A stretch of 64,000 nucleotides of DNA from assembly GCA_947628065.1 (NCBI GenBank), contig CANQYK010000001.1, forward strand, positions 7,372 through 71,371, given 5' to 3'. A program made the position numbers and the translations under genes. Below the pieces are notes generated by a model. That model was given only the letters and a program-made list of their open reading frames with translations, did not search any database and was not told the DNA's origin. The DNA is from an uncultured Bacilli bacterium (GTDB lineage: Bacteria > Bacillota_I > Bacilli_A > RF39 > UBA660). Numbering within the stretch: the stretch's first letter is position 1; each line of letters begins with the position of its first letter. Of this stretch, positions 3,577 through 40,171 are shown one piece after another.

Positions 3577-3692
3577 AGCTGTAATGAAATTACTTCATTA
3601 TGGTTTTTCTTTTTTTGATTGCAACAACTTTTTATAGAAAAAATAGAAAACTTATGTTATACTTAGTCTAATTTATAGAAAGGAGACCTTTT

Positions 3693-14775: not shown

Positions 14776-16404
14776 TTAAAGCCCAAACTCAAATGGATCA
14801 TCCACCGCTCCTGTACCTTTTAGCAATTGGATATTAGATACTAGATATACGACTGGGCGGACGCCGAACGTATTGCGCACGAGGTAGCCGTTTTCGACAC
14901 CCCCCGTGTTGCTCACAGCGAACGCACGGTACGAACGGTCGGAGTACGGGGCGATTGTCCATTGATATTTATTATTAACAAAGAGCCAGTCATTATTCTT
15001 ACAATCGGGTATCCCTCCATCACTACTGTACCAGTGATACAAATCTTTTGCTAAACAGGTTACTCTATTTGCTGTTGCTCCTCCACTTGTCGCATATCCA
15101 TAATCGCTAGGGTACATTAATCCTACTTTCCCTGTCCAGTTTGTTTTTCTTGGATGCGCACTACTACTATATACTGTTTCGCTTCTTTCAAACTTATAAT
15201 ATGCTTCTGTTAATACTCCGCTTGATGTACTATTTCCACCCAAGTACCATTTCGCATCTCCTATCATTGCTTGTGCCTCCGGTAACAGTCCTGTTTCTTC
15301 AAAATTACAAGTTGTTGATGCATTACTACTTCCACTTGGACAACTTCCACTTTGTCGATTCCAGTATAAACTTCCTTTTCCTCCTGTTGCATTTGCTTCT
15401 TCATCATATCCGGGATTCAGTATCATCATCAATCTTGAATCGGTCCAATCATTACTTCCGCGATCATCCTCTGATGACCCTGTCCCACTTGGCTTATTAT
15501 CAAATGATATAGTATTATCTGTTCCTACTGGTAATGGATCTTTTCTTATTAATTTAATTCTTTTTTCCCTCTTTCCTTCTCCATCATCTACTGTCTCAAT
15601 TCCAATAATCCTCCATCCTGCTTCTTCATTATTGAATGTTACATAATTATTTGGGTCAGCTCCTATATATCTATAATCTTTTAGTTCTTCTTCACTCCAA
15701 TCACTTTGTTGTGTTCCTCTACTACTTGCATGATTAAACACATACATCTTATTCTCTTTTGCATTTGCATCATCTTTACTATAATTTATATCATAATCTT
15801 GTACATCCTCACTATTGGTATAATTTGCAAGTAACTTTTCTACTGCTGATGTTGATTGCTTGTTACTATATCCTTTTACCAATACTTTCATCTTATATAT
15901 TGTTCCTTGCGCACTATTATCTGCTGTATCACTTAACCACAATCTTAAGGTATAAACTATCTTTTTATCATCTTCACTTGTTCCTAAAGTATCTTCATCC
16001 TTTACTATGAATGTTCCATTTCCAACTTCCTTCATTACTTTGATTCCAGAATCATATCCTTTATCACTTGTTAACTTATATTTTACAAAATTCGTATCTA
16101 ATGTATTATTATCCGTATCTTCTTGGAACGATATCATATAATATGCCGTAATGTCTCCACTATTTGTTATGGTAAAGGTATAAGGCTTACTTTCTAATCC
16201 TTCTTCATCACTTAAAGTACCAGTATTTTCTAAATTAATAGTATCTCCTTCTTCAAAATCTATTTTTAAGGTACCAGATTCGATACTTAAAGTTTTATCA
16301 CCTTTTAATGTTTTCGAAAATAAAGCAAACGTTGTTCCTAGTAATGATAAAACACTAAAACTAACGGATATTACAATAATTGCAATTAACTTTTTCTTAC
16401 TCAT
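14776..16404 (-). CDS. secreted surface protein with a TasA/camelysin-like N-terminal domain and a C-terminal lectin-like (DUF6273/DUF1566-like) domain
   Basis: The signal region LLGTTFALFSKTLKGDKTLSIESGTLKIDF resembles the SipW-type TasA N-terminus (GGGTWAAFND...ASGTLDL). The C-terminal half is paralogous to 60248..64000: DYRYIGADPNNYVTFN, WRIIG, RIKLIR, SRLMMILNPGY, LYWNRQSG, GLMYPSDYGYATSGG, and VRPVVYL followed by GTG..DPF. Confidence 0.7.
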   Translation of the reverse strand: MSKKKLIAIIVISVSFSVLSLLGTTFALFSKTLKGDKTLSIESGTLKIDFEEGDTINLENTGTLSDEEGLESKPYTFTITNSGDITAYYMISFQEDTDNNTLDTNFVKYKLTSDKGYDSGIKVMKEVGNGTFIVKDEDTLGTSEDDKKIVYTLRLWLSDTADNSAQGTIYKMKVLVKGYSNKQSTSAVEKLLANYTNSEDVQDYDINYSKDDANAKENKMYVFNHASSRGTQQSDWSEEELKDYRYIGADPNNYVTFNNEEAGWRIIGIETVDDGEGKREKRIKLIRKDPLPVGTDNTISFDNKPSGTGSSEDDRGSNDWTDSRLMMILNPGYDEEANATGGKGSLYWNRQSGSCPSGSSNASTTCNFEETGLLPEAQAMIGDAKWYLGGNSTSSGVLTEAYYKFERSETVYSSSAHPRKTNWTGKVGLMYPSDYGYATSGGATANRVTCLAKDLYHWYSSDGGIPDCKNNDWLFVNNKYQWTIAPYSDRSYRAFAVSNTGGVENGYLVRNTFGVRPVVYLVSNIQLLKGTGAVDDPFEFGL

Positions 16405-20501: not shown

Positions 20502-20700
20502 TCCTTTCTCACATAGCCTTCCCCTATGCTACGATATCATTATATCACCGAAAGAATAATAATGTCAATTTTGTTTTTATTCTAACTTAAAATCAATGTA
20601 TAATAAGCCAAATCAATACCATACTATATAGTGTAAAAAAAATACATTTGTGTTGCAAAAAAACTACAAAGGAGATATAATTGATATGGAAGTGAGGCTT

Positions 20701-21804
20701 ATGTTAAAAAGATTTAGTGTTAAAAATTTCAAAAATTTTAAAGAACGAATTGTTTTAGATTTTTCCAAAATAAGAGAATATGGATTCAATCAATACTTAA
20801 TAAAAAATAATTTGGTAAATAAAATGCTTATTTATGGACCAAACAATTCTGGAAAAAGTAACTTAGGTGCAGCCATCATGGATATTACAACACATCTTAC
20901 GGATAATGTGGGAACAAATAATATCTTATATGCTTATTATTTGAATGGTGATTATATGGATGAAGTTGTTGAATTTAAATATGAATTTTTATTTCATGAG
21001 AAGGAAATTACTTATTTGTATAAAAAAGATGCACAAGCAAAATTGCTTTCTGAAGAATTATACGAAAACGAGAAATTATTGTTTCAATATAATTATAAAA
21101 CAAATAAATTTGATAATAATATCAAAGAAGCTCAAACCATTGATATTTTAAAAAGGACAAATAAAGAAATGTCAGTATTAAAATTCATATATAATAATAC
21201 CTTATATTGGCCGGAGGATAGTTCAATTAAAGTTTTTATAGAATTTGTTAATAATATGTTATGGTTTCGAAGCCTAAAATCAAATGAATTTATGGGGGTA
21301 ATGGCAACCAAAGAAAATATGAACGATTTTATTATTAATAATGGATTACTAAAGGCATTTGAAAAATTTCTAAAAGAATGTGGACAAAATTATAATTTAT
21401 GTGAAATAAATGATCTTGGTAAAAAAGTAATTGGAGTTAAATATAAAAATTATACTGCAAGATTTGATATTGTTGCTTCCACTGGGACAAAATCCCTATG
21501 GCTTTTCTTTTATTGGATGAATCGAACCAATAATATATCATTTATATATTTAGATGAATTTGATGCGTTTTACCATTATGAATTATCCGCATACATACTA
21601 AAATATTTAAACAATAGAACAGAATTTCAAACAGTAATAACATCACATAACACATTCTTAATAACCAATGATTTAATGAGACCCGATTGTTATTGCATAT
21701 TGAAAAATGGTAAGATTACTAGTTTTGCCGATAGTACCTCAAAAACGATTCGACAAGCTCACAACTTAGAAAAAATGATGTTAGGAGGAGAATTTGAGAA
21801 GTAA
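20701..21804 (+). CDS. AAA/ABC-type ATPase (AAA_15/21-like), first gene of an AbiL/PARIS-like pair
   Basis: The N-terminus is MLKRFSVKNFKNF. Walker A is YGPNNSGKSNL, Walker B is IYLDEFDAFYH, and the H-loop is ITSHN. The start is placed at ATG 20701. Confidence 0.7.
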   Translation: MLKRFSVKNFKNFKERIVLDFSKIREYGFNQYLIKNNLVNKMLIYGPNNSGKSNLGAAIMDITTHLTDNVGTNNILYAYYLNGDYMDEVVEFKYEFLFHEKEITYLYKKDAQAKLLSEELYENEKLLFQYNYKTNKFDNNIKEAQTIDILKRTNKEMSVLKFIYNNTLYWPEDSSIKVFIEFVNNMLWFRSLKSNEFMGVMATKENMNDFIINNGLLKAFEKFLKECGQNYNLCEINDLGKKVIGVKYKNYTARFDIVASTGTKSLWLFFYWMNRTNNISFIYLDEFDAFYHYELSAYILKYLNNRTEFQTVITSHNTFLITNDLMRPDCYCILKNGKITSFADSTSKTIRQAHNLEKMMLGGEFEK

Positions 21805-22555
21805 AATTTTATTAATTGTAGAAGGAAAAAAAGATGAACCAAGAATATTAGGAAATGAAAGTCATGGACTATTATCTCTTATTGGTGGAAATTATGAAAT
21901 AGTACCATTTTCAAATCCAATTTATGAATTATATGATGCATATATTAATGGTGAATATGATGATTTGGTTGCTTATTTAAGATGTGAAAAAGGTTTAAAA
22001 ATTGCAGAAGAAACATTGTCTAAAAGTGCTTTTAGTGCTATTTATTTGGTATTTGATTATGAACCACAAGATCATAAATATTCCGATAAGAAAATTAAAA
22101 AATTATTGTCTATTTTTGATAACGAAACAGAATTAGGAAAACTCTATATTAATTATCCTATGGTAGAAGCATATTATCATCTTTATTCTTTGCCAGATCC
22201 TAAATATTATAATAGAACAATTTCGTTAAAAAATTTAAATGGAAAGAAATATAAAAAATTGGTTAATGAAACTACATGTTTGCGGAAAAATAAAATAACA
22301 AAAAAAGATTTATGCTATATAATCATGCACAATTATAAGAAAGCGCAAAAAATTACAAAATCGAAAAATCTAACTGTAAATCATAATAAAATATTAGATG
22401 CACAATTAAAATTAAAAAAGGAAAAGAATGAAATTTATGTTTTAAGTACTTTCCCACTTATTACAATAGACTATAATTATGAAAAGACAATAGAGATATT
22501 AAAATTTAAATTAAAAGAAGATTTTACAGACTATAAAAAAATGAAAAATTCTTAA
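21794..22555 (+). CDS. RloB-like / TOPRIM-like protein, second gene of the pair
   Basis: A TTG start overlaps the ATPase stop and follows TAGGAGGAG. ILLIVEGKKDEP resembles the TOPRIM Glu motif. LVFDYEPQD is DxD-like, and YINYPMVEAYYHL resembles the RloB SNPCFELWLLLH motif. Confidence 0.55.
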   Translation: MRSKILLIVEGKKDEPRILGNESHGLLSLIGGNYEIVPFSNPIYELYDAYINGEYDDLVAYLRCEKGLKIAEETLSKSAFSAIYLVFDYEPQDHKYSDKKIKKLLSIFDNETELGKLYINYPMVEAYYHLYSLPDPKYYNRTISLKNLNGKKYKKLVNETTCLRKNKITKKDLCYIIMHNYKKAQKITKSKNLTVNHNKILDAQLKLKKEKNEIYVLSTFPLITIDYNYEKTIEILKFKLKEDFTDYKKMKNS

Positions 22556-27684: not shown

Positions 27685-27705
27685 AAGCTGTATAAAACAG
27701 CTTTT
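27684..27705. terminator. bidirectional terminator between convergent genes
   Basis: AAAAGCTGT-ataaa-ACAGCTTTT lies between the GH3 stop and the stop of 27704..30616. Confidence 0.6.
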
Positions 27706-30607
27706 ATTCTTCCGTTCCTTTTTGACTCATATACTCATGATAACAATTATCTTTTGTTGGAACTTTACTTTTCGCAGAACAACTATTACCAGTTGCATTA
27801 TTACATCCAATTACCCCACGTTTTATAATGATATCCTTGAATTCATTTAAGAAGGGACTCTTATAAACTGTTAAACCATCCTGTTCTTGTGTACTGTTTC
27901 CTTTGGTTTGTAAGAACGTACCATTTTCTTCGTTGTATTTTCTAATCCTTTCAAGATCATTCACATCTAAGTGAAATTTATAATCCAATTCATTGGAATC
28001 TGAGTAAATACTATCACCTTTTTTCTCAATATCAGTGATTAAAGATGACGGCTGTACCAAATATTCACTATTTTCTAAGTTTGTTCCATTACAATTCCAA
28101 TTGAACCTAGGATCTTTTATAAAGACATGATTTAAGTCAATCGTTCGGAAAATTAAATCATTGGTTACTGGTGTAATATCATCTGGATCACTTGGCTGTG
28201 GATCATCTGGTGAAGGCGTAGTATCATCTGGATTTGGATTATGCGGTTCTTTTGGATCCGGGTCATCCGGTGGACAAGTTCCTAATTCTTCACATGGACA
28301 AGTACCAGTCTCTTCACATAGTGGATTTTGAATCAAAGCATAAAAACAGCTAATATCAAAATTCCAACCAAAGTAACCATAGTTTTGAACTTTTACATTA
28401 ATATTCATTTTTGTATTGCTTTCAATCGCACTTTTCTCTTCTCCTGTTGGAAGGCTTCCATCACCATAAACTTTCCAGTCATACCAATCAACATTTGTAT
28501 TAACGGTAGTTAATTTTGTACAATATTGTTCTCCAACTTCAGTCACACCAATATCAGAACTTGGAGTATGTGTTGTTTGACCAGACTTATTATTAATATA
28601 ATTTTTAGGGAAAGTAAGTAAATCACGATAGTCATAACAGGTACAAGAATCATCGCCTTGCAACATAGCTTGATTATCAGTTTTACAATCTTCTTGTTCT
28701 TTTTGTGTTTCTGCCGTACAACTGCCTTCTTCACCAACATAAGTATTTCCCATACAGATACCAGTTGTATCTTTTACTATACTACCTTTATGCAATCCTT
28801 TATCCATACTTTCGCCATTCCAGAAATTATCCGTTACATTCTCACTATTTTGGCGTTGTTTTGCATCGTATAGATTTTGTGCTTCTGTTTCTTTACCAGC
28901 ATATTTTGTTTTATCATCAACTGTTATTTCATATGTTCCAACCGAATCATTACACTCTTTCATTACACCAGAACATTTAGTTTGATCGGCCAAACAAGCT
29001 TCTACTTGCTCATCAGATAAGCCGCAACCTCTAGCATCCGCTTTCCACTGATCCATTGCTTGATTATAATCATCTACTCTTTCTTTATAACTAGTAGTAG
29101 AATCATCACAAAGATTAAATTTACAATCGGCTCCACAATTTCCTAGTTTTATAAATCCATTTTCTGCATGCCAATTAACCTCATCACTCTGTAATAGTGA
29201 TAATGTACTTGTTGCTTGCGATACATCTTGAAAATAGAAAATAGCTACATTACTAGGACAAGTTCCTGCACTAACCCATTGTAACGTTTTTTTATCAACA
29301 TATCCACCTGGGTTCTGTTGTTTGAATTTAACAAGAGCATCCACTAAAACTGGATCATTATAAGGTACTTTTTTATCAATATATTTGTCACCACCCGCAT
29401 AACCAATAGTACATCCATCTACTACTACTTCTTCTCCTGCTAAGCGCTTAACATAATTATTTTCTTTCTTTTGATATGACAACAAATTATTGGTACTTAC
29501 TTTTTGATCTTTAAAAACTTTATCTACATAAACTTTCTTATAGCAACTATCAATACATTTTTGAGAATATTTTCCATTGTCACATTGATTAATACATTGA
29601 TCAAACTCTTCATTTGGACCTGCTTGTGGACCTACTGTGGCATCTTTGTGTCTACATTCTGGTTGATCATAACATGCGATTGGCTCTGCTGGGGGTGCTT
29701 TCAAAAATTCTGTAACACACTCAACCGTTGATTTTATCTCCGTAACATATTGAAAACACATACCAGATTGTGTCTCAATTGGAGGATCAAATGTAACAGT
29801 AATTGCTTCTTTACATTTCTTATAACAATAATTTTCTGTTTTTTCATCTACGTGTGTTTTTGTTACTGATTTTTTTTCATCGCTATAATAATCACATTGT
29901 AATGCGCCTGGATTCTTTACATCTTCTGTTGTCTGTTCATCACTAAAAAGATTTTGAAGTCTACCAGAAGGTTTTCCAGATAATTGTCTTTCAAATCGTT
30001 CCTGTTGTTCACGAATCGTATCAAACGTAACGTTACCAAAGTTTGTAGCCTGTTTTACATAACAAGCAGGAACAACTAATTGTGCTTCTTTTTGACGACT
30101 TTTATATTTTTCACGAAAGGTTGTACAAATTGAATTAGAATAAAAAGCATTATCTTCTCCTGCTTGATAGTGTATACTTAATTCTCCTATTTTTGCACCT
30201 GCATAACACGTAACACCATTAATATCTACATCTTCTTTCAAACGAACATCAACTACTATAATTTTTCCTGGCGCATTTTGAAATTTACTTGGATGAATTA
30301 CCCATGGATGTTTTTCAGCTGAAGATTGATAAGCAGGATCACCAATTTTTAAATGTGAATCAACATTTTGAAATTCATAAAACGCTTGATCTTCATCTAA
30401 AGCTTTAATCTTTCTCCAACTAATACTATCAAAGTTAAAAAAATCAGATACTTCTTGAGCAGATATATTTTTCTCACATTCACATTCTTTATTTTTTATT
30501 TGTTCTTCTGTACATCTTTTTATAGCAAACACATCAATATCAGAGGAAATAATTACAGATAGTATAAATAGAAATAAAATCATTTTTCCCATCTTTTTAT
30601 ATCTCAT
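27704..30607 (-). CDS. large secreted cysteine-rich protein with a Pro/Asp-rich linker
   Basis: A signal-like N-terminus (MGKMILFLFILSVIISSDIDVFA) is present, and dozens of Cys residues are spread over about 970 aa. The linker reads CPCEELGTCPPDDPDPKEPHNPNPDDTTPSPDDPQPSDPDDITP. There is no C-terminal sorting signal or TM segment. The start is ambiguous (30616, 30607 or 30592), and I prefer 30607 on GAGG spacing. Confidence 0.6.
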   Translation of the reverse strand: MRYKKMGKMILFLFILSVIISSDIDVFAIKRCTEEQIKNKECECEKNISAQEVSDFFNFDSISWRKIKALDEDQAFYEFQNVDSHLKIGDPAYQSSAEKHPWVIHPSKFQNAPGKIIVVDVRLKEDVDINGVTCYAGAKIGELSIHYQAGEDNAFYSNSICTTFREKYKSRQKEAQLVVPACYVKQATNFGNVTFDTIREQQERFERQLSGKPSGRLQNLFSDEQTTEDVKNPGALQCDYYSDEKKSVTKTHVDEKTENYCYKKCKEAITVTFDPPIETQSGMCFQYVTEIKSTVECVTEFLKAPPAEPIACYDQPECRHKDATVGPQAGPNEEFDQCINQCDNGKYSQKCIDSCYKKVYVDKVFKDQKVSTNNLLSYQKKENNYVKRLAGEEVVVDGCTIGYAGGDKYIDKKVPYNDPVLVDALVKFKQQNPGGYVDKKTLQWVSAGTCPSNVAIFYFQDVSQATSTLSLLQSDEVNWHAENGFIKLGNCGADCKFNLCDDSTTSYKERVDDYNQAMDQWKADARGCGLSDEQVEACLADQTKCSGVMKECNDSVGTYEITVDDKTKYAGKETEAQNLYDAKQRQNSENVTDNFWNGESMDKGLHKGSIVKDTTGICMGNTYVGEEGSCTAETQKEQEDCKTDNQAMLQGDDSCTCYDYRDLLTFPKNYINNKSGQTTHTPSSDIGVTEVGEQYCTKLTTVNTNVDWYDWKVYGDGSLPTGEEKSAIESNTKMNINVKVQNYGYFGWNFDISCFYALIQNPLCEETGTCPCEELGTCPPDDPDPKEPHNPNPDDTTPSPDDPQPSDPDDITPVTNDLIFRTIDLNHVFIKDPRFNWNCNGTNLENSEYLVQPSSLITDIEKKGDSIYSDSNELDYKFHLDVNDLERIRKYNEENGTFLQTKGNSTQEQDGLTVYKSPFLNEFKDIIIKRGVIGCNNATGNSCSAKSKVPTKDNCYHEYMSQKGTEE

Positions 30608-31379
30608 TTTTATCATCCTCGCTTTCTTCCATTCTGGCTTTTATTTTTTCATAGTTTTTTGCTACCTTCACGTTTGCTAACGTTTGCTTTTCCATAGACC
30701 TCATCTTTCTTGCTTCTACAATAAAAGAATAACTAACTTTATTTCCATAAAATCGAGTACAAGTAAGAAGTGATAAAAGTTGATCACTTTCTTCTACTTC
30801 CGTATCAATAGAAAAAAGAGTTTCTTTCTTCGCATTTTCAATATAATCTTTTAATTCTTCTTTGGTATATTCATTTTTCGATAACAATCTAGCTTCTTGA
30901 TTGCCTATTAAATTAATAGCATAAATTCGATATATCTCTGTTTTTCCTTCTGCATTCGTATAAGCAATAAACTGATGTTTTTTTACAAAATCAGGATAGA
31001 TAAAAGACAGTAATTGTTCAAAATTTTTCATAGTGTTATCACCAACAATAGGATTTTTGGAAACATTTCGAATATTATGAGATGCAAAACTAATGTGATT
31101 GCTCTTATTACTTATTGTTGCCATAGTCCAAGCATATTGATCCTCTTCTGTATAATCCGGTTGATTCATCGATACAATTGTAAGAGGCAAATCAATATTG
31201 GTACCTTCTACTTGAATCCATCCTGCCACAATTGCTCCTTTTTTTTCAAATTTTTTCATCTGCTCTACTCTATCTTCCCCACGATATACAGTATGCTTTC
31301 TTTCTTTCATAAAAAAGAAGAAAGAAAGAGAAAGAAAGAAAACACTTAAAATAATCAAAACTATTTTCTTCTTTTTCAT
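30597..31379 (-). CDS. class B sortase-like transpeptidase
   Basis: The protein has an N-terminal TM anchor. It is collinear with my recollection of S. aureus SrtB: IVAGWIQVEGTNIDLPL vs IVGWIKLSGTSLNYPV, ASHN...GDNTMKNF vs YGHHVGDNTMF, LLSLLTCTR vs IMTLSTC, and SFIVEARK vs RIVVVAK. Candidate His, Cys and Arg catalytic residues are present. Confidence 0.75.
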   Translation of the reverse strand: MKKKKIVLIILSVFFLSLSFFFFMKERKHTVYRGEDRVEQMKKFEKKGAIVAGWIQVEGTNIDLPLTIVSMNQPDYTEEDQYAWTMATISNKSNHISFASHNIRNVSKNPIVGDNTMKNFEQLLSFIYPDFVKKHQFIAYTNAEGKTEIYRIYAINLIGNQEARLLSKNEYTKEELKDYIENAKKETLFSIDTEVEESDQLLSLLTCTRFYGNKVSYSFIVEARKMRSMEKQTLANVKVAKNYEKIKARMEESEDDKNEI

Positions 31380-31392
31380 TTTATTGCCTCCT

Positions 31393-33225
31393 CTATTTTG
31401 AAACTACAAAAGGAGATTCTATAGTACCTTGTCCTTCTTTAATTATAATATTATCATCAAAATAAGCTCTTATTTTTACTGCTGCTTTTATTTGTGGATC
31501 CAATTCATCAAGATAAGGAACCGTTCCACTATAATACACTAAATAACGTCGATTATTATTTTTTGAAGATTCCAATAACCAATAAGCATTCGTAGTAGTA
31601 TCATTTGATTTGGCACTAAAAATAGTGAAAGTAGAAGGAGCACTTAATCTTACTTTGTATTTTTTCACTTCTTTATTTCCATTATAAACAACTTTATCTT
31701 TATAAATTGGTACTTCTATTTCTTGATTTTTTAACAATGACGTATCCATATATTTTGTCATATTTTGATTAATTTTATAACCAATACTATTTTTATTTTT
31801 TGGATCATAAATAGATGTATTCTTATAATTAATTTCTTCTATTACACCATCACTTGCAAGTATATCTACCATCGTTATTTCTGTCGTATTATCTTTTATA
31901 CCAGAAATTCGAAATAAATAGCTAGAATAGCGAACATATTCTCCAATTTGACGTGTATTAATTTTACTATTTCTCTTTACTTTCTCCTTTGTTTTTAATA
32001 TATAAGGATCCGTTTTTGTTCCAGTACCACTTACGATTCTTGTATTATTTTTTAATACAAGAGCTGGTTTTACATTAAATATTTTATCCGTCTCCATTTC
32101 ATATATTGTATTTTCTAAAGTGGAACCTTCAATCAAAGTATAGGGTAGTTTTTCATCTGAAAAATTACTATACCATGTAAGAGCAGAAGATGATAAATAA
32201 CTTTTGTTGTAAGAATCTAACGTACTAATATAATCTTGAATGGATAATATACCAACTTTTCTCTCATCACTATAGCGATCACAAGTTTCTTTTTTTAGAT
32301 TACTTTTTGGAACAATATCATCACACCATTTATTTTCCATAATCATTTTTTGATAATCTTCTTCTAATAAATTATAAAAATATTGATTTAACCATTGATC
32401 AAGACTACTGCCAGCAAAACGACCATTTTTATCACTATAGTCAACATTAGCAAGGGAATCATTACTAACGATTAAAACAGTACCATTTTCATTTACTTTT
32501 ACAATACGAAATAACATATTATTAAACAATACATAATTTTCTAAACTACTCCCGACATAAATATTTCCCGTTTGTTCTGTTGCTTTTTTTATCGTATCCG
32601 ATAATTTTTCAATTACCTCCACCGTTCGTTCTACTGTTGTTTTATTATCAAGACTATCTTTTGCAGTATATGAAATTGTATAAACACCAACTTTATTGGT
32701 ATCTACACTTCCTTTCGTAATAACACTACTAGTACTAATTACCCCATCAATATTATCTTTTACACTTTTAATACCAGCATCTTGATAGTTACTTCCTCGA
32801 CTAATAACCATATTTTCTTCTCCATTCATTTCAATCGTTGGTCCTTCATGATCGATATCACTTTCGAAAGAAGCACATTTTAGATAAGTATAATATTTCT
32901 GTCCATTTTTTGTATTTTTGGCTCTTACTGTTGATTTTTTAATATCACAATCTACTGTTCCATTAGAAATTGTTAATTCTCGGTCCAAATATTTCTGTTT
33001 TACAAGTGTTTCCATAGAAACAGAAAGAATTCTATTTTCATCCTTTGGCAGACTATTTTGATTTACTTCAAAATATTTTTTACCTGCTTGAAAAAAGATT
33101 TCTTCATTCTTTTTAAAAGCACGCATCGGAGAAAAATAGCCAAACCAAACAAATACGAAAACGAATACTGCAATACATAAAATAAGACTCCATTTCAATA
33201 TTTTATTTTTTAACTCTTTTGTCAT
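31393..33225 (-). CDS. membrane-anchored surface protein with a DUF5011-like Ig domain and a C-terminal lectin-like (DUF6273-like) domain
   Basis: An N-terminal TM segment (WSLILCIAVFVFVFVWFGYF) is present. GPTIEMNGEENMVISRGSNYQDAGIKSVKDNIDG...VGVYTISYTAKDSLDNKTTVERTVEV fits the DUF5011 pattern. NYVLFNNMLFRIVKVN, SSLDQWLN, VGILSIQDY, YWLLESS, and VKPALVL followed by GTGTKTDPY parallel the C-domain of 14776..16404. Confidence 0.6.
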   Translation of the reverse strand: MTKELKNKILKWSLILCIAVFVFVFVWFGYFSPMRAFKKNEEIFFQAGKKYFEVNQNSLPKDENRILSVSMETLVKQKYLDRELTISNGTVDCDIKKSTVRAKNTKNGQKYYTYLKCASFESDIDHEGPTIEMNGEENMVISRGSNYQDAGIKSVKDNIDGVISTSSVITKGSVDTNKVGVYTISYTAKDSLDNKTTVERTVEVIEKLSDTIKKATEQTGNIYVGSSLENYVLFNNMLFRIVKVNENGTVLIVSNDSLANVDYSDKNGRFAGSSLDQWLNQYFYNLLEEDYQKMIMENKWCDDIVPKSNLKKETCDRYSDERKVGILSIQDYISTLDSYNKSYLSSSALTWYSNFSDEKLPYTLIEGSTLENTIYEMETDKIFNVKPALVLKNNTRIVSGTGTKTDPYILKTKEKVKRNSKINTRQIGEYVRYSSYLFRISGIKDNTTEITMVDILASDGVIEEINYKNTSIYDPKNKNSIGYKINQNMTKYMDTSLLKNQEIEVPIYKDKVVYNGNKEVKKYKVRLSAPSTFTIFSAKSNDTTTNAYWLLESSKNNNRRYLVYYSGTVPYLDELDPQIKAAVKIRAYFDDNIIIKEGQGTIESPFVVSK

Positions 33226-33254
33226 ACATATCTCCTATTCTTATCCTCTATTTA

Positions 33255-33283
33255 ATTATATAAAAAGTTAAAATCACTGTCAA
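33255..33283 (-). promoter_or_regulatory. sigma-A-type promoter for the 31393..33225 / sortase / 970-aa unit
   Basis: The minus strand reads TTGACA (33278..33283), a 17-nt spacer, then TATAAT (33255..33260), about 30 nt upstream of the start codon. Confidence 0.5.
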
Positions 33284-33334
33284 GAAATAACCAATTAAAA
33301 ATACTTTTTAATAAAAATAATTTCATAACAGAAA

Positions 33335-33360
33335 AGAAAATAAGTTTGTTCTTATTTTCT
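33335..33360 (-). terminator. possible terminator after the 59-aa ORF
   Basis: AGAAAATAAG-6-nt loop-CTTATTTTCT forms a 10-bp stem, followed on the minus strand by TTTCTGTT. Confidence 0.4.
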
Positions 33361-33388
33361 ATAGATTTTTCTTTCTTTAAAAGATGTA

Positions 33389-33568
33389 TTAACAATTTCC
33401 ATTTTGTACACAATTATTTAAATCCTTCGCAATTTCTTTTCCAAAGTCAGTGGAAGAATCATGTTCAAAGCTAATCGTTCCTAACAATAAAAATAACATT
33501 AAACTTCCCATTAGCAATAAACCATATAAAATTGTCGAAATTGCAAATCCTTTTTCTCCTAATTTCAT
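33389..33568 (-). CDS. 59-aa pilin/pseudopilin-like small protein (not in the ORF track)
   Basis: My translation is MKLGEKGFAISTILYGLLLMGSLMLFLLLGTISFEHDSSTDFGKEIAKDLNNCVQNGNC. The ATG directly abuts the stop of 33569..34132 (TAAATG). The N-terminus resembles a class III prepilin signal (EKG/F plus a hydrophobic helix) but has Thr where Glu5 is expected. A C-terminal Cys-x5-Cys is present. Confidence 0.5.
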   Translation of the reverse strand: MKLGEKGFAISTILYGLLLMGSLMLFLLLGTISFEHDSSTDFGKEIAKDLNNCVQNGNC

Positions 33569-34123
33569 TTATTCCTCCACAACCTCAATATTTGCATGAA
33601 AATGATTGGTTTTATCAACGATAAAATTGCTATTCATTGCCCAAATCCGAATCGAATAATCTTCTTGCTCCCCTGCTTTTAATATATCTTCATGAATCAT
33701 ACCACCATCATATTCTGATAATACAAAAGCATCCGGTGCCAAATGATCTTTTCTTAAGCTTAATTTTAATAGTTCCATTGGAATCTTTTTCTCACTACAA
33801 CCACACGCTTCTATTTCTTCCTCATTTTCTTTTATCATAATTTTATATTTTATATCCTTTAAAGTATTATTATGAACCGTAAACGAATATGCTGGAGAGG
33901 TAAGCCCAACAGCATCACTTACTGGTTGAAACTTCTTCATCGTAATTTGATTCCCACTTTTGGTATGAAATACAACTTCCATTTCGCCAACATCGTAATC
34001 CTTCTCACTTTGTTTTGCAAATTTTTGATAAATAAAATAAGTTGAAAAAATAGCAAAGGCTAGTAAAAAGAAAATAGTAACAGTACTTTTTAATAGATGC
34101 TTTTTATAACCATTTAAATTCAT
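33569..34123 (-). CDS. membrane-anchored protein with a TasA/camelysin-like beta-sandwich domain
   Basis: A TM segment (VTIFFLLAFAIFSTYFIY) is present. GEMEVVFHTKSGNQITMKKFQPVSDAVGLTSPAYSFTVHNNTLKDIKYKIMI parallels residues of about 40 to 100 of 14776..16404 (GTLKIDFEEGDTINLENTGTLSDEEGLESKPYTFTITNSGDITAYYMISF). The ORF opens at GTG 34132, and ATG 34123 is preferred. Confidence 0.55.
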   Translation of the reverse strand: MNLNGYKKHLLKSTVTIFFLLAFAIFSTYFIYQKFAKQSEKDYDVGEMEVVFHTKSGNQITMKKFQPVSDAVGLTSPAYSFTVHNNTLKDIKYKIMIKENEEEIEACGCSEKKIPMELLKLSLRKDHLAPDAFVLSEYDGGMIHEDILKAGEQEDYSIRIWAMNSNFIVDKTNHFHANIEVVEE

Positions 34124-34269
34124 TTTCTCCACCTCTTCTTCATTGTAAAGCTTGTTTTTTAATTCGTCAATGAAAAATAGGCTCTTTTACAACTTATTTT
34201 GTAAAGATTTATAAAAAAACTCTTGCATATCTTTCTTTTTTGTTATATAGTTATATTGCACTTATAAAT

Positions 34270-34346
34270 GTCCGCGTAGCTCAGCTGGATAGAGCAATCG
34301 CCTTCTAAGCGATCGGTCGCGTGTTCGAATCACGCCGTGGACACCA
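34270..34346 (+). tRNA. tRNA-Arg (anticodon TCT)
   Basis: A cloverleaf is readable by eye: acceptor GTCCGCG/CGTGGAC, D-arm TAGCTCAGCTGGATAGAGC, anticodon stem ATCGC/GCGAT with loop CTTCTAA, and T-arm GTGTTCGAATCACGC. The 3' CCA is encoded. Confidence 0.9.
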
Positions 34347-34753: not shown

Positions 34754-35080
34754 ATGTTTCTCAAAGTAGGAAAGAAAAAAATTAAAATTAAAACCCTAAA
34801 TACTTTTTTAGAACGCATCAAAAGTTTTCGCTTTCAACTAGAGCCGATTACAACAGGATTATATTTTCCAAAGAAAAAGGGAATTAACACCTACTTTTTT
34901 TGTCAACGCGTTGATATTATTTTAACGGATGAGAACAATAAAATTTTATATTTGTATCCTTCTTGTAAAAGTGAAAAAATTATTTTTCACAAACGAAAAG
35001 CAAAACAAATTTATCTTTTTCCTATTGGGGTTTCCAAAGTTTATAAAGTTGGAGATACTCTAAAAATAGAAGAAAACTAA
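34754..35080 (+). CDS. small hypothetical protein (possibly DUF192-like)
   Basis: This is a 108-aa ORF preceded by AAAGGTGGG. The family assignment is only a weak pattern impression. Confidence 0.35.
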   Translation: MFLKVGKKKIKIKTLNTFLERIKSFRFQLEPITTGLYFPKKKGINTYFFCQRVDIILTDENNKILYLYPSCKSEKIIFHKRKAKQIYLFPIGVSKVYKVGDTLKIEEN

Positions 35081-35976
35081 TTTCTTCTATTTTTGCTAAT
35101 AAGAGCCATTGGGATCGATAATTGATTGATGCGCTCTATAATTCTTTTTGCTTTTACTTTATCATAATTAGTAATACTTAAATTATTTTCTAATTCATCC
35201 ATCGTTAAATTAGAAGTAAAAAATGTTGGTAAGTGTTCATCCATCCGATATTGTAGGATAGGACCTAAGACTTCATCCCTACTCCAAGCGGTTGTGTTTT
35301 CTGCTCCAATATCATCCAAAAGTAGTAAAGGAGCTTTTTTTATAAACTCATACTTTTCATCATAATCGGATCCAAACGATGCTTTTAAGCTTCTTAATAG
35401 TTCTGGATAATAAACTAAAACACTTGATACTTCCTTTTTGGCAAGCTCATTAAAAAGCGCTGCTATTAAATAGGTTTTCCCACTTCCAAACGAACCATGT
35501 AAATAGATTCCTTTTTTTCTTTCTCCTTTTTCATAAGAATCAATAAATTCCTTAAAATATTTAATAATAGGAAGGCGATTCTTATCATCTTTATAAACAT
35601 CTTTAAATGATGCCTTTTTGATCTCTTTTGGTAAATCAAAACAAGTAATATTGTGCTGATAAGCATATTTTTTTTCTTGGCTCTTATAATACGGGCAAGC
35701 CTCATAAGAAAAGTTAAGTCCCTTCCCTTCTATTTTGGAAGAAAGAACATGACCTTTTAATAAATTCTTACACTCTTCGATGGAAGAACAATTTCTACAG
35801 TGAACATATTCTTCCTTTGCTTCCTCTAGTCTTGTCGTATAATTTTGTAATGCTTCATCACTTAGATCAATCTTTTCTACATATTCTCTAAAATCTTTAT
35901 CACTACAAGCATCCATATAAGCTTGTTTTAATTTGATTTGATTTTCTTTTGGTAATGTTTTTCCAACTTGTATCAC
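35077..35976 (-). CDS. dnaI: primosomal helicase loader DnaI
   Basis: The N-terminus is Cys/His-rich (HCRNCSS...ECKN...CPYY). The AAA+ core has the motifs LHGSFGSGKTYL and LLLLDDIGAE. The protein is 299 aa. Confidence 0.7.
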   Translation of the reverse strand: MIQVGKTLPKENQIKLKQAYMDACSDKDFREYVEKIDLSDEALQNYTTRLEEAKEEYVHCRNCSSIEECKNLLKGHVLSSKIEGKGLNFSYEACPYYKSQEKKYAYQHNITCFDLPKEIKKASFKDVYKDDKNRLPIIKYFKEFIDSYEKGERKKGIYLHGSFGSGKTYLIAALFNELAKKEVSSVLVYYPELLRSLKASFGSDYDEKYEFIKKAPLLLLDDIGAENTTAWSRDEVLGPILQYRMDEHLPTFFTSNLTMDELENNLSITNYDKVKAKRIIERINQLSIPMALISKNRRN

Positions 35977-35985
35977 GTTATCACC

Positions 35986-38139
35986 TCATCTCTTTTCATT
36001 ATAAGGTGCCTTTATTTTTTTTTCAATTCCTTTTTGATAACTTTTTACACTTCCCTTTTGAAAATCAAAACAAACCATACCACTAGAACTTGTATTATAA
36101 AGAATACTACCTTCCTTTTTTAAAGCATCTACCACTTCTTTATGTGGATGGCCAAATTTATTGTCTTTCCCACTTGATATTAACGCATAACGTGGCCTTA
36201 CCATGTCTAAAAAGGCTTTACTACTACTTGTTTTCGAACCATGATGACCAACTTTTAAAATGGTAACTGGTAAAAGTTCATATTCCTTTAAGAGTTCCTC
36301 TTCACTCTTTTTACTGGCGTCTCCCATAAATAACATCTTATATTGAAAGATCGTCGCATATAAAATGAGACTTGAATCGTTTTCATCGTTTAAATCTTTA
36401 CTTAATACTTGAAAATGATAATTAGAAAGTGTAAAAGTATCGTTATGATAGAGCTTTCTTACAGGAATCTTTTTCTCTTTGGCTTTCTTTTTAATTTGTT
36501 GTTCCAAAGAATTTTCTTTGTTTTCATTTAGAAAGACACTTCCTACCTTAATATTGTCCAAAAGGGTAAGCGCTTCCATCGCATGATCAGCATCCCCATG
36601 TGTTAAGAGTAATACATCAATTTTTTTAATTCCTCTTTGATAAAGAAAAGAAATGGTATAAGTACCAAGAGATGTTTTTTCAACTCCTTTTTCCCACGCC
36701 TCTTGTTTGTATTCCATCTTTCCTCCTGTATCAATTAACATACTCTTCCCATTTGAGGTTAATAAAAAGCTATCGCCCTGCCCTACATCGATCATATAAA
36801 GCCTATCTTCTTTTATAATCGATGGTAGAATATAATGAAAAGACAAAAGAGCAAGAAGAAAGAGGAAATACTTCTTTTTCTTCTTGAAAAGAAAAAGAAA
36901 AATAGGAACAAAAAGGAAAAAATAATACCAAAGAGGAAGTCTTTTAAAAATCAAAATACCAACGGGAATCTTGGCAAGAGATAAAACACTTTTTTCTAAG
37001 ATAAGAAGAAAGAATGCAAAAATAGATTTTAAAAAAGGACAAAAAAAAGTTGCTATGGAAAGAGGAAAAACAATGATATTAATAAAAGGAACATAAAATA
37101 AATTATAGAAAATACTAAGAGGATTAAGATAGCTAAAATGATAAAGAGAAATGGGAAGAGATACCAAAAAAGATAAGAATGATACCTCTAATAAGCTTTT
37201 AAGAAAGTTTTTTTCTTTTCCCTTTTCTCTTTCATAATATAAAATTAAACTTACCGTAATTACTGTCGCATATTGAAATCCAATATCCAAAACATAATAA
37301 GGATTTAAAAACAGTAGTGTGGCAAGGGAAATACAAATTAATTGAAAAGGAGAGACGAAGAAATCAAAGGCTTTGTTGATTTCGAAATAGAAAAAGAAAA
37401 CAAGAGCCCGATCGACTGCTGCACAAGAGTCGATCATAGCATAATAACAAAGTAAGATACAAAAGGTTTCAAAAAAGATCGTTCTAGCGGTTTGTTTTCT
37501 TTTTTGTAAGAGAAATAATAAAATAGATGCAAGAAAGGTTATTTGTGTTCCAGATAAGGCGAATAGATGAGAGATTCCTAATTTTTGGAAAGCACTTTTC
37601 ACATCCTTCTTAATATCATCATCTTGACCTAAGAAAAAGCAATTAATATAGCAAGCTACTGTATCAAAGGAGGCGATATAGCGTCTTACTTTGTCTCGAA
37701 GGAAAAGAATAACATTTCTATTTTCTCTTACTTTCTCCATCTCATCGATTTGAAGAAAATGATAGATGCCTTTCTGCCTTAAATATAAGGGATATGAAAA
37801 ACTACCAAAATTTTTCGTCGAAGTTGGGGTTTTAAGACTTCCACTTACTCTAACCAGATCACCAAGATGAAAATTGGATGCCAATTCTTTTTCTTGTTTC
37901 GTTTTAAAATAGTAAGAGGCTTGTAGTTTTTCATCTGCTTCTAATTGTAACGTAAATTGATTCCCAGATAGATGCAACTGAATAATTTTTGCTGTTAATT
38001 CCACCTTTCCATCTCTATATTTTGCATTCCTGGAAACTAAGGTAAGGGTAAAGGTAGTATAAATGAAACTAAATACAATAAGAAATAAGTATAGTTTTTT
38101 AGACAGTAATATTTTCCTTAATCTTAGCAAAAAGGGCAT
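35986..38139 (-). CDS. comEC: DNA internalization competence protein ComEC/Rec2
   Basis: A polytopic competence domain is followed by a C-terminal metallo-beta-lactamase domain (MIDVGQGDSFLL, LLLTHGDADH, KVGHHGS). The protein is 717 aa. Confidence 0.88.
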   Translation of the reverse strand: MPFLLRLRKILLSKKLYLFLIVFSFIYTTFTLTLVSRNAKYRDGKVELTAKIIQLHLSGNQFTLQLEADEKLQASYYFKTKQEKELASNFHLGDLVRVSGSLKTPTSTKNFGSFSYPLYLRQKGIYHFLQIDEMEKVRENRNVILFLRDKVRRYIASFDTVACYINCFFLGQDDDIKKDVKSAFQKLGISHLFALSGTQITFLASILLFLLQKRKQTARTIFFETFCILLCYYAMIDSCAAVDRALVFFFYFEINKAFDFFVSPFQLICISLATLLFLNPYYVLDIGFQYATVITVSLILYYEREKGKEKNFLKSLLEVSFLSFLVSLPISLYHFSYLNPLSIFYNLFYVPFINIIVFPLSIATFFCPFLKSIFAFFLLILEKSVLSLAKIPVGILIFKRLPLWYYFFLFVPIFLFLFKKKKKYFLFLLALLSFHYILPSIIKEDRLYMIDVGQGDSFLLTSNGKSMLIDTGGKMEYKQEAWEKGVEKTSLGTYTISFLYQRGIKKIDVLLLTHGDADHAMEALTLLDNIKVGSVFLNENKENSLEQQIKKKAKEKKIPVRKLYHNDTFTLSNYHFQVLSKDLNDENDSSLILYATIFQYKMLFMGDASKKSEEELLKEYELLPVTILKVGHHGSKTSSSKAFLDMVRPRYALISSGKDNKFGHPHKEVVDALKKEGSILYNTSSSGMVCFDFQKGSVKSYQKGIEKKIKAPYNEKR

Positions 38140-38821
38140 CTCCTATTCCACTTACATTTTTGATTTCTTCAATGGTTTGAAAAGGACCTTTTTCCTCTCG
38201 ATACGAAAGAATGGCTTTGGCTTTGGCTTCTCCGATTCCAGGTAATGTCATCAACTCTTCTAATGTTGCTGTATTAAGGGATAGTTTTCCTTCGATCACC
38301 ACACTCGATTGCGTTTTCTTTTCTTCTGTTGTACTATCTTTGATGCAAGCATCGTTTTCGAGTGCTTCTTCACTTGGCTTTACACATGCTTCTTGTTGTT
38401 GTTCTTCCGTCTCTTTGGTCTTGGTAAAGTCCTCTACCTCTTTTTTACTATAAACGACAATAACCATCTCGTCTTTCACTTTCTTTGAAAGATTCAAAAC
38501 AGAGGTATCCGCATTTACAGTAAGATCTCCTGCTAGTCGAATGACATCAATCACTCTGCTTCCTTCGGTAACAGAATAAATTCCAGGATTCATAACTTCA
38601 CCTTTTATATCCACTTGAAAATAAACTTCCTCTTTTTCAACTGACGAGGACTTATCCTCTTTCTCTTCTTTCTTTTTGGCACTCAAAACAACAGGGGTGT
38701 TTTCTTTTTTTGTCTTTTTTTGAAAACCACTTCGAAAAAGAAAGACAAGTCCCAAAACTAGCAAACAAAAGAGAAAAAGAGCAAGAATAATTTGTTTTCG
38801 ATGTCGATAAGTAAAGGTCAT
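38099..38821 (-). CDS. comEA: competence DNA receptor ComEA
   Basis: The protein has a TM anchor, an SLBB-like region (GEVMNPGIYSV) and C-terminal tandem HhH motifs (LNTATLEELMTLPGIGEAKAKAILSYREEKGPFQTIEEIKNVSGIG). The start is placed at ATG 38821 after GGAGGAGG. Confidence 0.88.
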   Translation of the reverse strand: MTFTYRHRKQIILALFLFCLLVLGLVFLFRSGFQKKTKKENTPVVLSAKKKEEKEDKSSSVEKEEVYFQVDIKGEVMNPGIYSVTEGSRVIDVIRLAGDLTVNADTSVLNLSKKVKDEMVIVVYSKKEVEDFTKTKETEEQQQEACVKPSEEALENDACIKDSTTEEKKTQSSVVIEGKLSLNTATLEELMTLPGIGEAKAKAILSYREEKGPFQTIEEIKNVSGIGDALFAKIKENITV

Positions 38822-38847
38822 TTCGCACCTCCTCCTTTCCGACAAGC

Positions 38848-38876
38848 ACTATAGCAGATATTAAAAAATGTGTCAA
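38848..38876 (-). promoter_or_regulatory. sigma-A-type promoter of comEA-comEC
   Basis: The minus strand reads TTGACA (38871..38876), a 17-nt spacer, then TATAGT (38848..38853). Confidence 0.55.
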
Positions 38877-38877
38877 A

Positions 38878-38981
38878 AGGGGAATTTTGCAAATTCCGGC
38901 ACTTTTTTGGGGGAAAATTGCAAATTCCCCGGGGGAAAATGCAAAATTCAGCCGAAAATGGGGCTGAATTTGCAAAATTCA
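38878..38981. promoter_or_regulatory. array of four 15-nt imperfect palindromes (GAATTTTGCAAATTC-like, each flanked by a G/C run) directly upstream of the comEA -35
   Basis: The copies lie at about 38882..38896, 38913..38927, 38936..38950 and 38966..38980. The two distal copies can also pair with each other as a hairpin downstream of the SEDS gene. Confidence 0.6.
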
Positions 38982-38998
38982 CTTTTTTTTACTTTTTT

Positions 38999-40171
38999 TC
39001 ATTTTTTTCGTTTTTTGGGGGTTTCGTTCCGAATTCCTGTCTCTATTTTTACCCGTTGTACAAAGGTTAAAGCGACCATCAAGCAAAGTGTAAAGCTTCC
39101 TCCATAACTAATAAAAGGAAGAGGAATTCCAGTAATTGGAATAAGTCCTAAAATACCTAAGAGATTAATACTGATATGAAGAAAGAGATAGAAAAAGATT
39201 CCATAACAAATCATCGCACCTCGGTTCGTATAACTTTTCTTTCCAATAAAATAAATACGAGATAAAACAACAATATAACAAAGAATTAAAAGAATACCTG
39301 TTACAAGACCTAATTCTTCTACTACAATAGCAAAGATAAAATCTGTATATGGCTCTGGCAAATACAAATATTTTTGAGTGGAATTACCAAGACCAACCCC
39401 TGTTAATCCCCCATTGTTAATCGCAATATAACCATTACATACTTGATTCCCTTCATCTAGTAATTTCTCACATGGATTTCCGAAAGAAGAAAGACGTTCT
39501 TTCTGTCTTGCATGAAGAAGTTCAAAACCACAAAGTTGTAGTGTCCCAAGAAGAGCAAGAGCTATTAAACCACCAAAAAAGACAATTTTAATTTTTCGTA
39601 TTAAAGTAATGGGAACGAGAAAGAAAACAAACAAAACAATAACAGTATAAATAAGAGCGGTTCCATAATCATTTTGTAATACAATTAAAATAGCAGGCAA
39701 AGCACCAATACAAAGAGGAAGCGCCGCAACAAACCAATGATCAAGATGCTTCTCATATACTTCATAGAAGCGTGCCATCCAAACAATAATAATTATTTTG
39801 GCAAACTCACTTGGTTGGAACATAAAAGGACCAATGGGAAACCAACTTTTCGCATCATTGGTTACTTTTCCATAAACAAGAAGCAAAAATAAGATAACGG
39901 TAATAGCAATCAATAAAAGCGATGAAAACATTCCATATGCTTTGGTATTAAACCGAATCATAACAGAACACAAAAGAAAACTAATAACTAAAAAAATACC
40001 TTGTTTAAAAAAATATCCATAAAAACTTTTTCCGTTCATATAAGCCGTTACATTACTAGCCGATAATACCATAATAAGTCCAAAGATAAAAAGAGCGGCC
40101 GTTAAAACAAAAAGAATTTTATCCATATGTTTGATCATTTGGGCAGTTTTCTTCAAAGTATCACGCTCCAT
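38999..40171 (-). CDS. SEDS-family peptidoglycan glycosyltransferase (FtsW/RodA/SpoVE)
   Basis: This 390-aa protein has about 10 TM segments. Characteristic segments include FQPSEFAKI, NDYGTAL and LPFISYGGS. Confidence 0.85.
   Translation of the reverse strand: MERDTLKKTAQMIKHMDKILFVLTAALFIFGLIMVLSASNVTAYMNGKSFYGYFFKQGIFLVISFLLCSVMIRFNTKAYGMFSSLLLIAITVILFLLLVYGKVTNDAKSWFPIGPFMFQPSEFAKIIIIVWMARFYEVYEKHLDHWFVAALPLCIGALPAILIVLQNDYGTALIYTVIVLFVFFLVPITLIRKIKIVFFGGLIALALLGTLQLCGFELLHARQKERLSSFGNPCEKLLDEGNQVCNGYIAINNGGLTGVGLGNSTQKYLYLPEPYTDFIFAIVVEELGLVTGILLILCYIVVLSRIYFIGKKSYTNRGAMICYGIFFYLFLHISINLLGILGLIPITGIPLPFISYGGSFTLCLMVALTFVQRVKIETGIRNETPKKRKK

Follow-up and report, generated by a model that had tools for sequence, protein, structure and literature searches.

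In a 64,000-nucleotide stretch of DNA from an uncultured Bacilli bacterium (contig CANQYK010000001.1; the whole stretch is called the window below), five co-directional minus-strand genes lie around one that encodes an enzyme resembling class B sortases (SrtB). Three of them, encoding proteins of 610 amino acids (aa; family p600), 260 aa (the sortase-like enzyme) and 967 aa (family p953), are a module that travels together and is separate from the other two, an upstream pair encoding proteins of 184 and 59 aa. With moderate confidence, we consider this triad to be the detached, still-selected surface-protein/sortase head module of a machine that resembles type IV filament systems. Among uncultured gut Bacilli with small genomes, one clade would have the triad at the head of a Tad-like machine, whilst in this species, where it has a perfect promoter of its own, it would have been detached from it. 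An earlier note, made from the letters of the window, had treated all five genes as one secreted-protein system built around the sortase.

The triad in related genomes

Relatives of the enzyme were sought by scanning species-representative genomes, one per species. This gave 286 stretches encoding such relatives, from which 79 loci were kept, and the open reading frames (ORFs) of the related loci (referred to here by L numbers) were labelled by phmmer. Nearly all of the 79 loci are labelled as uncultured Bacilli or as 'Tenericutes' metagenome-assembled genomes, with two labelled Muribaculaceae. Named examples are Candidatus Onthousia, which NCBI places in Bacilli incertae sedis, Clostridium sp. 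CAG:451, Mycoplasma sp. CAG:877 and Candidatus Faecimonas.

The p600 gene was found directly upstream of the enzyme gene, and the p953 gene directly downstream, in 68 of 80 genomic copies. The remaining 12 copies comprise six at contig ends, three without p600 upstream (L075, L080 and an extra copy in L084) and three without a recognised p953 within the downstream search range. Recurrence of the synteny suggested by the earlier note was therefore partial: the triad recurs across relatives, but ORF labelling placed the pair beside it in none of the 79 loci (0/79).

Genes for DUF5411, CpaB and an ATPase followed downstream in every locus that had at least 6.5 kb of downstream sequence (65/65). 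The arrangement is a rigid cluster of about 13 genes, or 14 with a divergent thioredoxin gene, and its order is near-identical throughout. It begins with a lipoprotein thioredoxin in divergent orientation (gene 1) and p511, a protein with a polytopic membrane domain and a weak match to DUF4352 (gene 2). The triad follows in the order p600, sortase-like enzyme and p953 (genes 3–5), and leads into DUF5411, a CpaB/RcpC-like protein and a secretion ATPase (genes 6–8). The cluster continues with two very conserved polytopic membrane proteins of 297 and 259 aa (item 9), a ~52-aa and a ~150-aa protein (items 10–11), and a ~325-aa protein with one or two ~120-aa proteins (items 12–13).

Profile searches of the cluster proteins gave matches of unequal strength. 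The ATPase matched PF00437 (T2SSE) at 95.7 bits, and its nearest NCBIfam models were VirB11, TadA-family and FlaI, all of them below the equivalog cut-offs. The CpaB/RcpC-like protein scored 31.8 bits against PF16976 (cut-off 28.8) and 21.5 against SAF (cut-off 21), and 38.8 bits against TIGR03177, below the cut-off of 71. DUF5411 was matched at E 6.5e-48. The ~52-aa proteins start with MK(E/A)A(T/S)G-EL(N/S)(M/L)T and the ~150-aa proteins with MRDA(I/F)G-(G/Q), in each case followed by a hydrophobic helix, and the ~52-aa protein gave a weak hint of archaeal Pilin_N (E 0.016). The two polytopic membrane families were not detectably related to each other (hhalign probability 2%). From these sequence features, the machine appears to be a divergent type IV filament-like (Tad-like) one.

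The ~52-aa and ~150-aa proteins were also seen to have a six-residue leader in common, M[KR][ED]AxG (L007 17980..18656, and about 70 loci). A common leader ending in Gly looks like the mark of substrates of one prepilin peptidase, carrying a non-canonical prepilin signal.

Tad/Flp systems (type IVc) likewise hold a TadA/VirB11/FlaI-family ATPase and a CpaB/RcpC-like protein, and the related clusters add p511, p600, the sortase-like enzyme and p953 to such a set. Together with Tad/Flp, the CpaF-PilC-DUF5411 operon that Miller et al. (2022; PMC9523054) noted in gut Clostridia is among the systems closest to the related clusters, which hold DUF5411 as well as ~52-aa pilin-sized and minor-pilin-like proteins. 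Those authors classed the operon as an uncharacterised system related to secretion. Theirs was the only paper in our literature search that treated DUF5411, and the available part of its text makes no mention of a sortase. The same search found no paper linking sortase B with Tad or type IV filament terms. In contrast to sortase-pilin operons, the enzyme genes of the relatives are embedded in a secretion-ATPase/CpaB cluster.

In the window, searches for the machine genes by BLASTP and by 11 family hidden Markov models (HMMs) with filters off returned only noise, so that all 64 kb hold none of them. The five-gene arrangement, together with a neighbouring GH3 glycosidase gene, recurs in at least four independent assemblies. 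Comparison with the sister species (L096) gave ratios of nonsynonymous to synonymous substitution (dN/dS) of 0.16 for p600, 0.15 for the enzyme and 0.23 for p953, with the enzyme 80% identical to its L096 ortholog. The detached triad is maintained under purifying selection. In a neighbour-joining tree (no bootstrap), the enzymes of the window and L096 share a long branch that falls within the cluster-embedded family, as sister to the CAG-451/Onthousia group and with the canonical SrtBs outside. This placement suggests that the detached state is derived.

The sortase-like enzyme

The enzyme belongs to a tight family of ~260-aa proteins (166 clusters at 90% identity, all from gut metagenomes), one member of which is labelled 'putative sortase SrtB family [Clostridium sp. 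CAG:451]'. It scored 24.6 bits against PF04203, under the cut-off of 26.6, and 44.5 bits against the class B sortase model TIGR03064, under the cut-off of 153.75; the canonical SrtB of a relative scores 176 bits against the latter model. A profile of the family matched class B sortases among solved structures at E 4e-19. An AlphaFold2 (AF2) model of the enzyme built with 84 sequences had a predicted local distance difference test score (pLDDT) of 90.2 and a predicted template-modelling score (pTM) of 0.85. The top 19 Foldseek matches of this model among solved structures were all class B sortases (E 6e-12 to 5e-8), with TM-scores of up to 0.79–0.81 relative to the target and identities of only 14–22%. 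On the strength of the model we are confident that the enzyme has a class B sortase fold and forms a divergent clade.

Residues H101 and C207 aligned with His130 and Cys223 of Staphylococcus aureus SrtB, the reference sequence of which was verified against PDB entry 1QWZ, and with the His and Cys of Clostridioides difficile and Clostridium perfringens SrtB. Both were invariant in the 84 aligned homologs and in 90 of 90 genomic copies. R209 (Cys+2) was likewise invariant, within the motif T-C-T-R-[FLM], in all 90 genomic copies, which span down to ~33% identity. S. aureus Arg233 aligned to F219 in the HMM alignment and to S218 in MAFFT, beside Tyr217 at the modelled start of strand β8. Position 220 is R or K in most family copies and Ile in the window enzyme, whilst R224 was R in 82 of 82 genomic copies with a matching motif and K in 2 of 19 metagenome homologs. 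The earlier description of a SrtB-like transpeptidase with candidate His, Cys and Arg residues is thus borne out for His101, Cys207 and the fold, but the Arg that was probably meant (R224) lies off the canonical catalytic position.

Overall, the enzyme shares with class B sortases (MEROPS C60B; Spy0129, PDB 3PSQ; clostridial SrtB, 5B23 and 4UX7) its fold, an N-terminal membrane anchor, the aligned catalytic His and the Cys of the T-C motif, and a gene position among large surface-protein genes. It differs from them in its low identity and its scores below the TIGR03064 and Pfam cut-offs, and in having no Arg at the β8 start and an invariant Arg at Cys+2 instead. It also carries a family-specific, conserved 11-residue insertion after the His (HN-x-x-N-x-S-x-x-P) and a family-specific C-terminal extension of ~35 residues, and its neighbours lack a sorting motif, transmembrane segment and basic tail.

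These differences raise the alternative that the sortase-fold protein is no transpeptidase at all, and serves as a structural or chaperone-like subunit, or as a simple protease, recruited to the machine. A comparable case is SipA, a signal-peptidase-like protein that takes part in streptococcal pilus assembly although it has no peptidase activity. Such a role would agree with the canonical Arg missing at the aligned position, the scores under both curated sortase cut-offs, the insertion by the catalytic His, the C-terminal extension and co-conserved partners without any sorting signal. However, the invariance of His101, Cys207 and the TCTR motif in 90/90 copies is hard to explain without catalysis, the role of the missing Arg could fall to R209, which is invariant, and R224, which is nearly so, and the enzyme is constrained in sequence (dN/dS 0.15). 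We regard a non-transpeptidase role as quite improbable.

Between its RNase III and RNase J genes, one relative was seen to encode a canonical class B sortase (L094 6069..7004; the 176-bit match to TIGR03064). The window has no such gene at the syntenic position (58204..58255), and no second sortase was found in the 64 kb.

Partner proteins and candidate substrates

The p600 protein runs from a transmembrane helix through a pilin-like head (residues ~41–119) and an immunoglobulin-like (Ig-like) PF16403 domain to DUF6273-type domains and a G-x-G-T-x4-P-[YF] end. It matched PF16403, formerly DUF5011, at 71.5 bits (cut-off 27; E 6e-20), as the earlier note had proposed, and DUF6273 at 25.8 bits (cut-off 23.5; E 1e-5). 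The head is homologous to that of a prepilin encoded at L083 573..1268 (phmmer E 1.5e-8, and down to 5e-12 for p600 family members), which itself passes the prepilin models PF07963 and TIGR02532. p600 shares its N-terminal hydrophobic helix, pilin head and large adhesin-type domains with type IV minor pilins and large tip adhesins. It differs from minor pilins in lacking the G-F-x-x-x-E cleavage/methylation motif and any match to a curated pilin model, and has the look of a very large adhesin that carries a pilin head and a degenerate leader. The window protein is 36–43% identical to its cluster-embedded orthologs.

In the p953 protein, a Sec-type signal peptide and a variable N-terminal region (~240 aa) precede a core in which ~20 Cys are invariant, and the C-terminal part carries a GCNN motif. 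The large, cysteine-rich secreted protein of the earlier note is therefore confirmed, at 967 aa when the start picked by public gene callers is taken (ATG 30607; the first ATG is at 30616). Its family comprises 693 representative clusters at 50% identity, of which 533 remain at E 1e-30, and the best-scoring 150 members among the matches listed are 827–1166 aa long. It had no Pfam or NCBIfam match. The extracellular thioredoxin encoded nearby in relatives would fit oxidative folding of p953.

Between the sortase and p953 genes there is an overlap of 11 nt when counted from ATG 30607 and of 20 nt from ATG 30616; in L007 it is 14 nt. Genes for sortase, p953 and DUF5411 are duplicated as a unit in L084 (2233..6445), and p600 and p953 are duplicated without the sortase in L059, L072 and L077. 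Because its gene overlaps and co-duplicates with the sortase gene, p953 would be the most likely partner of the enzyme. The sortase-p953-DUF5411 duplication is apparent in Mycoplasma sp. CAG:877 too, and partial tandem duplications of the head module are also listed for L075/L080/L086.

Under the detached-module reading, p953 would be exported by Sec and folded oxidatively, whilst p600 would be seated in the membrane through its pilin-like N-terminus and could be loaded onto the filament as a large tip or minor pilin. The sortase-fold enzyme would be anchored with its active site outside the cell, where its His-Cys pair would cleave or ligate a partner via a signal other than an LPXTG motif with transmembrane segment and basic tail. 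We infer the catalysis, the choice of substrate and the physical link to a filament. In its most specific form, the proposal would be that a sortase-fold transpeptidase is built into a Tad-like machine, where it covalently joins p953 and/or p600 to the filament or the wall through an anchorless non-LPXTG signal and with a relocated Arg, and that in this species it is uncoupled and works alone. We hold this specific form to be unlikely.

Sorting signals were searched for as an LPXTG-, NPQTN- or SPXTG-like motif with a hydrophobic stretch and then a basic tail behind it. No real signal was found in window ORFs of at least 80 aa, where the lone match to the pattern was FtsW/RodA and is not real, and none was found in ORFs of at least 100 aa in the first 89 related loci. 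The five proteins of the locus have no canonical sorting signal, in agreement with the earlier note. Its broader claim, that the sortase has no recognisable substrate, stands as far as classical signals go, but would be weakened by a protein encoded elsewhere in the window that ends in VVPTG.

This giant surface protein (60248..>64000, minus strand) is encoded 26 kb from the triad by a gene that runs off the window end and remains open upstream up to that point, giving at least 1,086 aa inside the window. It contains repeats, a DUF6273-like region and 21 Cys. It ends exactly with ...GGLKPVVPTG-stop, and there is no transmembrane segment or basic tail after VVPTG. According to Kang et al. (2011; PMC3019223), the class B pilus sortase Spy0129 recognises the consensus (E/Q/V)(V/P)PTG, of which VVPTG is one form. 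The substrate candidates are accordingly of two kinds: synteny points to p953 or p600, and the motif to the VVPTG protein.

The true substrate may thus lie outside the module, among secreted proteins with a short anchorless class B motif such as the VVPTG protein. The enzyme would then cut between Thr and Gly and attach the protein to the wall or to a second protein, leaving p600 and p953 as acceptors or unrelated neighbours. The motif is a member of the published Spy0129 consensus, and the codons TAA TAG and a terminator-like repeat directly behind it leave no room for a transmembrane segment. By a rough estimate, the chance of such a pentamer at the exact C-terminus is ~1e-4 among about 60 window proteins, and the window holds no other sortase that could use it. 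L076 offers a second anchorless example, ...IIIPPNTGID-stop, directly behind a SrtB-like gene. Nevertheless, the partners of the enzyme across about 80 genomes are p600 and p953 and not homologs of the giant protein, which has no convincing relatives in the related loci and none of whose C-terminus was found in Joint Genome Institute (JGI) metagenomes. The rest of the genome may encode a canonical sortase, as the relative L094 does, and anchorless sorting signals are not an established class. A substrate outside the module seems to us a doubtful explanation.

The L076 region (2575..4283) itself holds a second SrtB-like gene of 214 aa, distinct from the cluster-embedded clade (curated models were not scored), followed directly by that of the secreted 353-aa protein with the anchorless motif. 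This lineage may make use of short C-terminal motifs that lack an anchor.

A number of results weigh against the detached-module reading. With no machine component in the 64-kb window, dependence of the triad on the machine cannot be shown here, and the machine is called 'Tad-like' because of its ATPase, CpaB, DUF5411 and pilin-like features only. Unlike Tad/Flp systems, the related clusters show no detectable TadB/TadC (T2SSF) or TadZ homology. Labels of this kind had been assigned by gene position to the 297-, 259- and 325-aa proteins and were withdrawn, as these had no Pfam or NCBIfam match and solved-structure profiles gave nothing below E 0.4. The Flp G/XXXXEY motif is absent from the ~52-aa pilin-like protein, and no prepilin peptidase was found in the cluster, to which the search was confined. 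In the enzyme, the canonical Arg at the β8 start (Cys+8 to Cys+10), described as strictly conserved in sortases (PMC3019223), was not found at the aligned position. The AF2 model of p953 (20 sequences) reached a pLDDT of only 55, with no Foldseek match to solved structures below E 1.

The C-termini of the presumed partners also belong among these points. Many tails of close p953 relatives end in ...LKG[AG]x, ...GG[NK] or ...LTGE, but as a family-wide signal the p953 tail was rejected, since only 48 of 166 proteins (29%) end in G[GAE]x0-3, and none of the 166 has a C-terminal transmembrane segment. The p600 C-terminus is the generic one of its domain type, and no family-wide C-terminal motif able to serve as a signal was found in p600.

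The upstream pair and the surroundings of the locus

All five minus-strand ORFs are present as the earlier note described them, and both promoters that it had named for two transcription units were found (Table 1). The triad promoter lies inside the 163-bp gap that separates the 59-aa and 610-aa genes. Promoter-like sites across the AT-rich window numbered 42, against 39.3 ± 6.5 in shuffles, and since this is no excess, only the position and quality of the sites are informative. For the 184-aa gene, the longest ORF would begin at GTG 34132.

Table 1. Coordinates of the genes and sites of the locus in the window
Feature	Position	Strand	Remarks
p953 gene, 967 aa	27704..30607	minus	Sec signal peptide, Cys-rich core
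Sortase-like enzyme gene, 260 aa	30597..31379	minus	predicted class B sortase fold
p600 gene, 610 aa	31393..33225	minus	PF16403 + DUF6273
Triad promoter	33255..33283	minus	sigma-70-type TTGACA-17-TATAAT; 12/12 consensus matches
59-aa peptide gene	33389..33568	minus	ORF
184-aa protein gene	33569..34123	minus	N-terminal transmembrane segment; ATG 34123 behind GGTGGAG ribosome-binding site
Promoter-like site of unit 1	34142..34170	minus	TTGACG-17-TACAAT; 10/12 consensus matches
tRNA-Arg(tct)	34270..34346	plus	neighbour only

The 184-aa protein has standalone homologs of 184–186 aa with 54–65% identity. In three lineages (L090/L091, L092/L093 and L094/L095) a gene for 59–60 aa lies directly behind that of the 184-aa homolog, and in all three (3/3) this pair adjoins hrcA-grpE-dnaK with no triad near. 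Because the pair recurs alone beside hrcA-grpE-dnaK in relatives, it is independent of the triad, and it is a separate conserved unit, merely adjacent to the sortase module here. Near four of the clusters there are only distant multidomain relatives of the 184-aa protein.

A self-contained, novel fibre or adhesin assembly system of all five genes around the sortase, as first proposed, is contradicted by this synteny: the three related lineages examined all have the pair without the triad, all 79 genomic loci have the triad without the pair, and the two units have separate promoters. The proposal drew on genes that are co-directional, tightly packed and stable in four assemblies of this species, and on both units encoding membrane-anchored or secreted proteins with pilin-like traits. 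We consider it highly improbable. The earlier remark that the five-gene combination is not a described system does hold, in that no description of it was found in the literature searched.

The 184-aa protein had been called TasA/camelysin-like, and this label finds no support from profiles or solved structures. No Pfam or NCBIfam match was obtained for it at E ≤1, no TasA or Peptidase_M73 match for nine members of its family at E ≤10, and no TasA match in a solved-structure profile search with the family, the best match there being an archaeal pilin (E 0.042). Weak Ig-like hints from Pfam indicate that it possibly has a beta-sandwich fold. The protein resembles the N-terminal domain of 620–680-aa surface proteins of the DUF6273 type.

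A 542-aa paralog is encoded elsewhere in the window (14776..16404, minus strand). Homology to the giant VVPTG protein (E 4e-85) was seen in its C-terminal part, which ends in GTGAVDDPFEFGL, and its N-terminal domain is like the 184-aa protein (…GTTFALFSKT…SGTLKIDF…).

In the 59-aa peptide, a prepilin-like leader (MKLGEKG|FAISTILY...) precedes a hydrophobic helix, and C-x5-C lies at the C-terminus. Orthologs have the consensus MxxxN(K/R)GFA(I/V)(S/T)TILY...C-x5-C; they keep K-G-F-A-I-S-T and the ~22-residue hydrophobic helix, and Glu5 is replaced by Thr or Ser. A search of a small database gave a weak alignment (E 1e-3) of the peptide with a true prepilin, over the leader and first helix of the latter, and the orthologs matched a prepilin model weakly at E 0.028. 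The earlier term 'pilin-like' is thus weakly backed by a conserved leader and helix and a weak alignment, but no curated pilin model (PF07963 or TIGR02532) reaches E 1 with the window peptide, and Glu5 is absent.

The tRNA-Arg gene reported beside the locus was identified as tRNA-Arg(tct). A mobile island at this tRNA gene was considered and rejected, given the even base composition (about 28–34% G+C), the housekeeping neighbours, no sign of an integrase and no phage match. A plasmid search gave two distant SrtB-like matches only, with no mobile-element relatives of the locus. Housekeeping genes nearby encode a DnaI-like protein, ComEC, ComEA, FtsW/RodA, SMC and PolA, and genes for a GH3 glycosidase and a CPBP protease lie on the other side. 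The DnaI-like gene, ComEC, ComEA and FtsW/RodA adjoin the locus (35077..40171), so that DNA-uptake genes are present. The FtsW/RodA (SEDS) gene suggests peptidoglycan synthesis, which bears on any wall-anchoring role of the sortase.

At the far end of the triad, the p953 stop and the convergent GH3 glycosidase stop are just 19 bp apart (27685..27703), which leaves no room for separate terminators. This junction may be the breakpoint that separated the module from the rest of the cluster.

Two further observations concern other parts of the window. A candidate two-gene anti-phage system lies at 20650..22555 (plus strand), with PADLOC matches to PDC-M12A (E 1e-118) and PDC-M12B (E 4e-50) and weaker matches to AbiLi and AbiLii. 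An ORF of 1,524 aa at 50984..55558 (minus strand) had no Pfam, NCBIfam or PADLOC match, and no signal peptide was evident by eye.

Implications for surface assembly in gut Bacilli

The apparent five-gene 'system' of the window is a juxtaposition of two units, and the synteny gives context to three sizeable unannotated families, p953, p600 and p511. The hosts are abundant uncultured gut bacteria with small genomes (contigs of ~1.4–1.5 Mb). Textbooks give Gram-positive bacteria two routes to surface fibres, sortases and type IV filaments, and keep them apart. In virtually all cases examined here, a distinct clade of sortase-fold enzymes is a fixed part of a filament-type cluster. If the most specific form of the proposal is true, this would be a hybrid of covalent, sortase-driven and non-covalent, ATPase-driven pilus assembly. 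If the enzyme is active, it would point to a new rule of substrate recognition, and perhaps to covalent decoration of a type IV filament.

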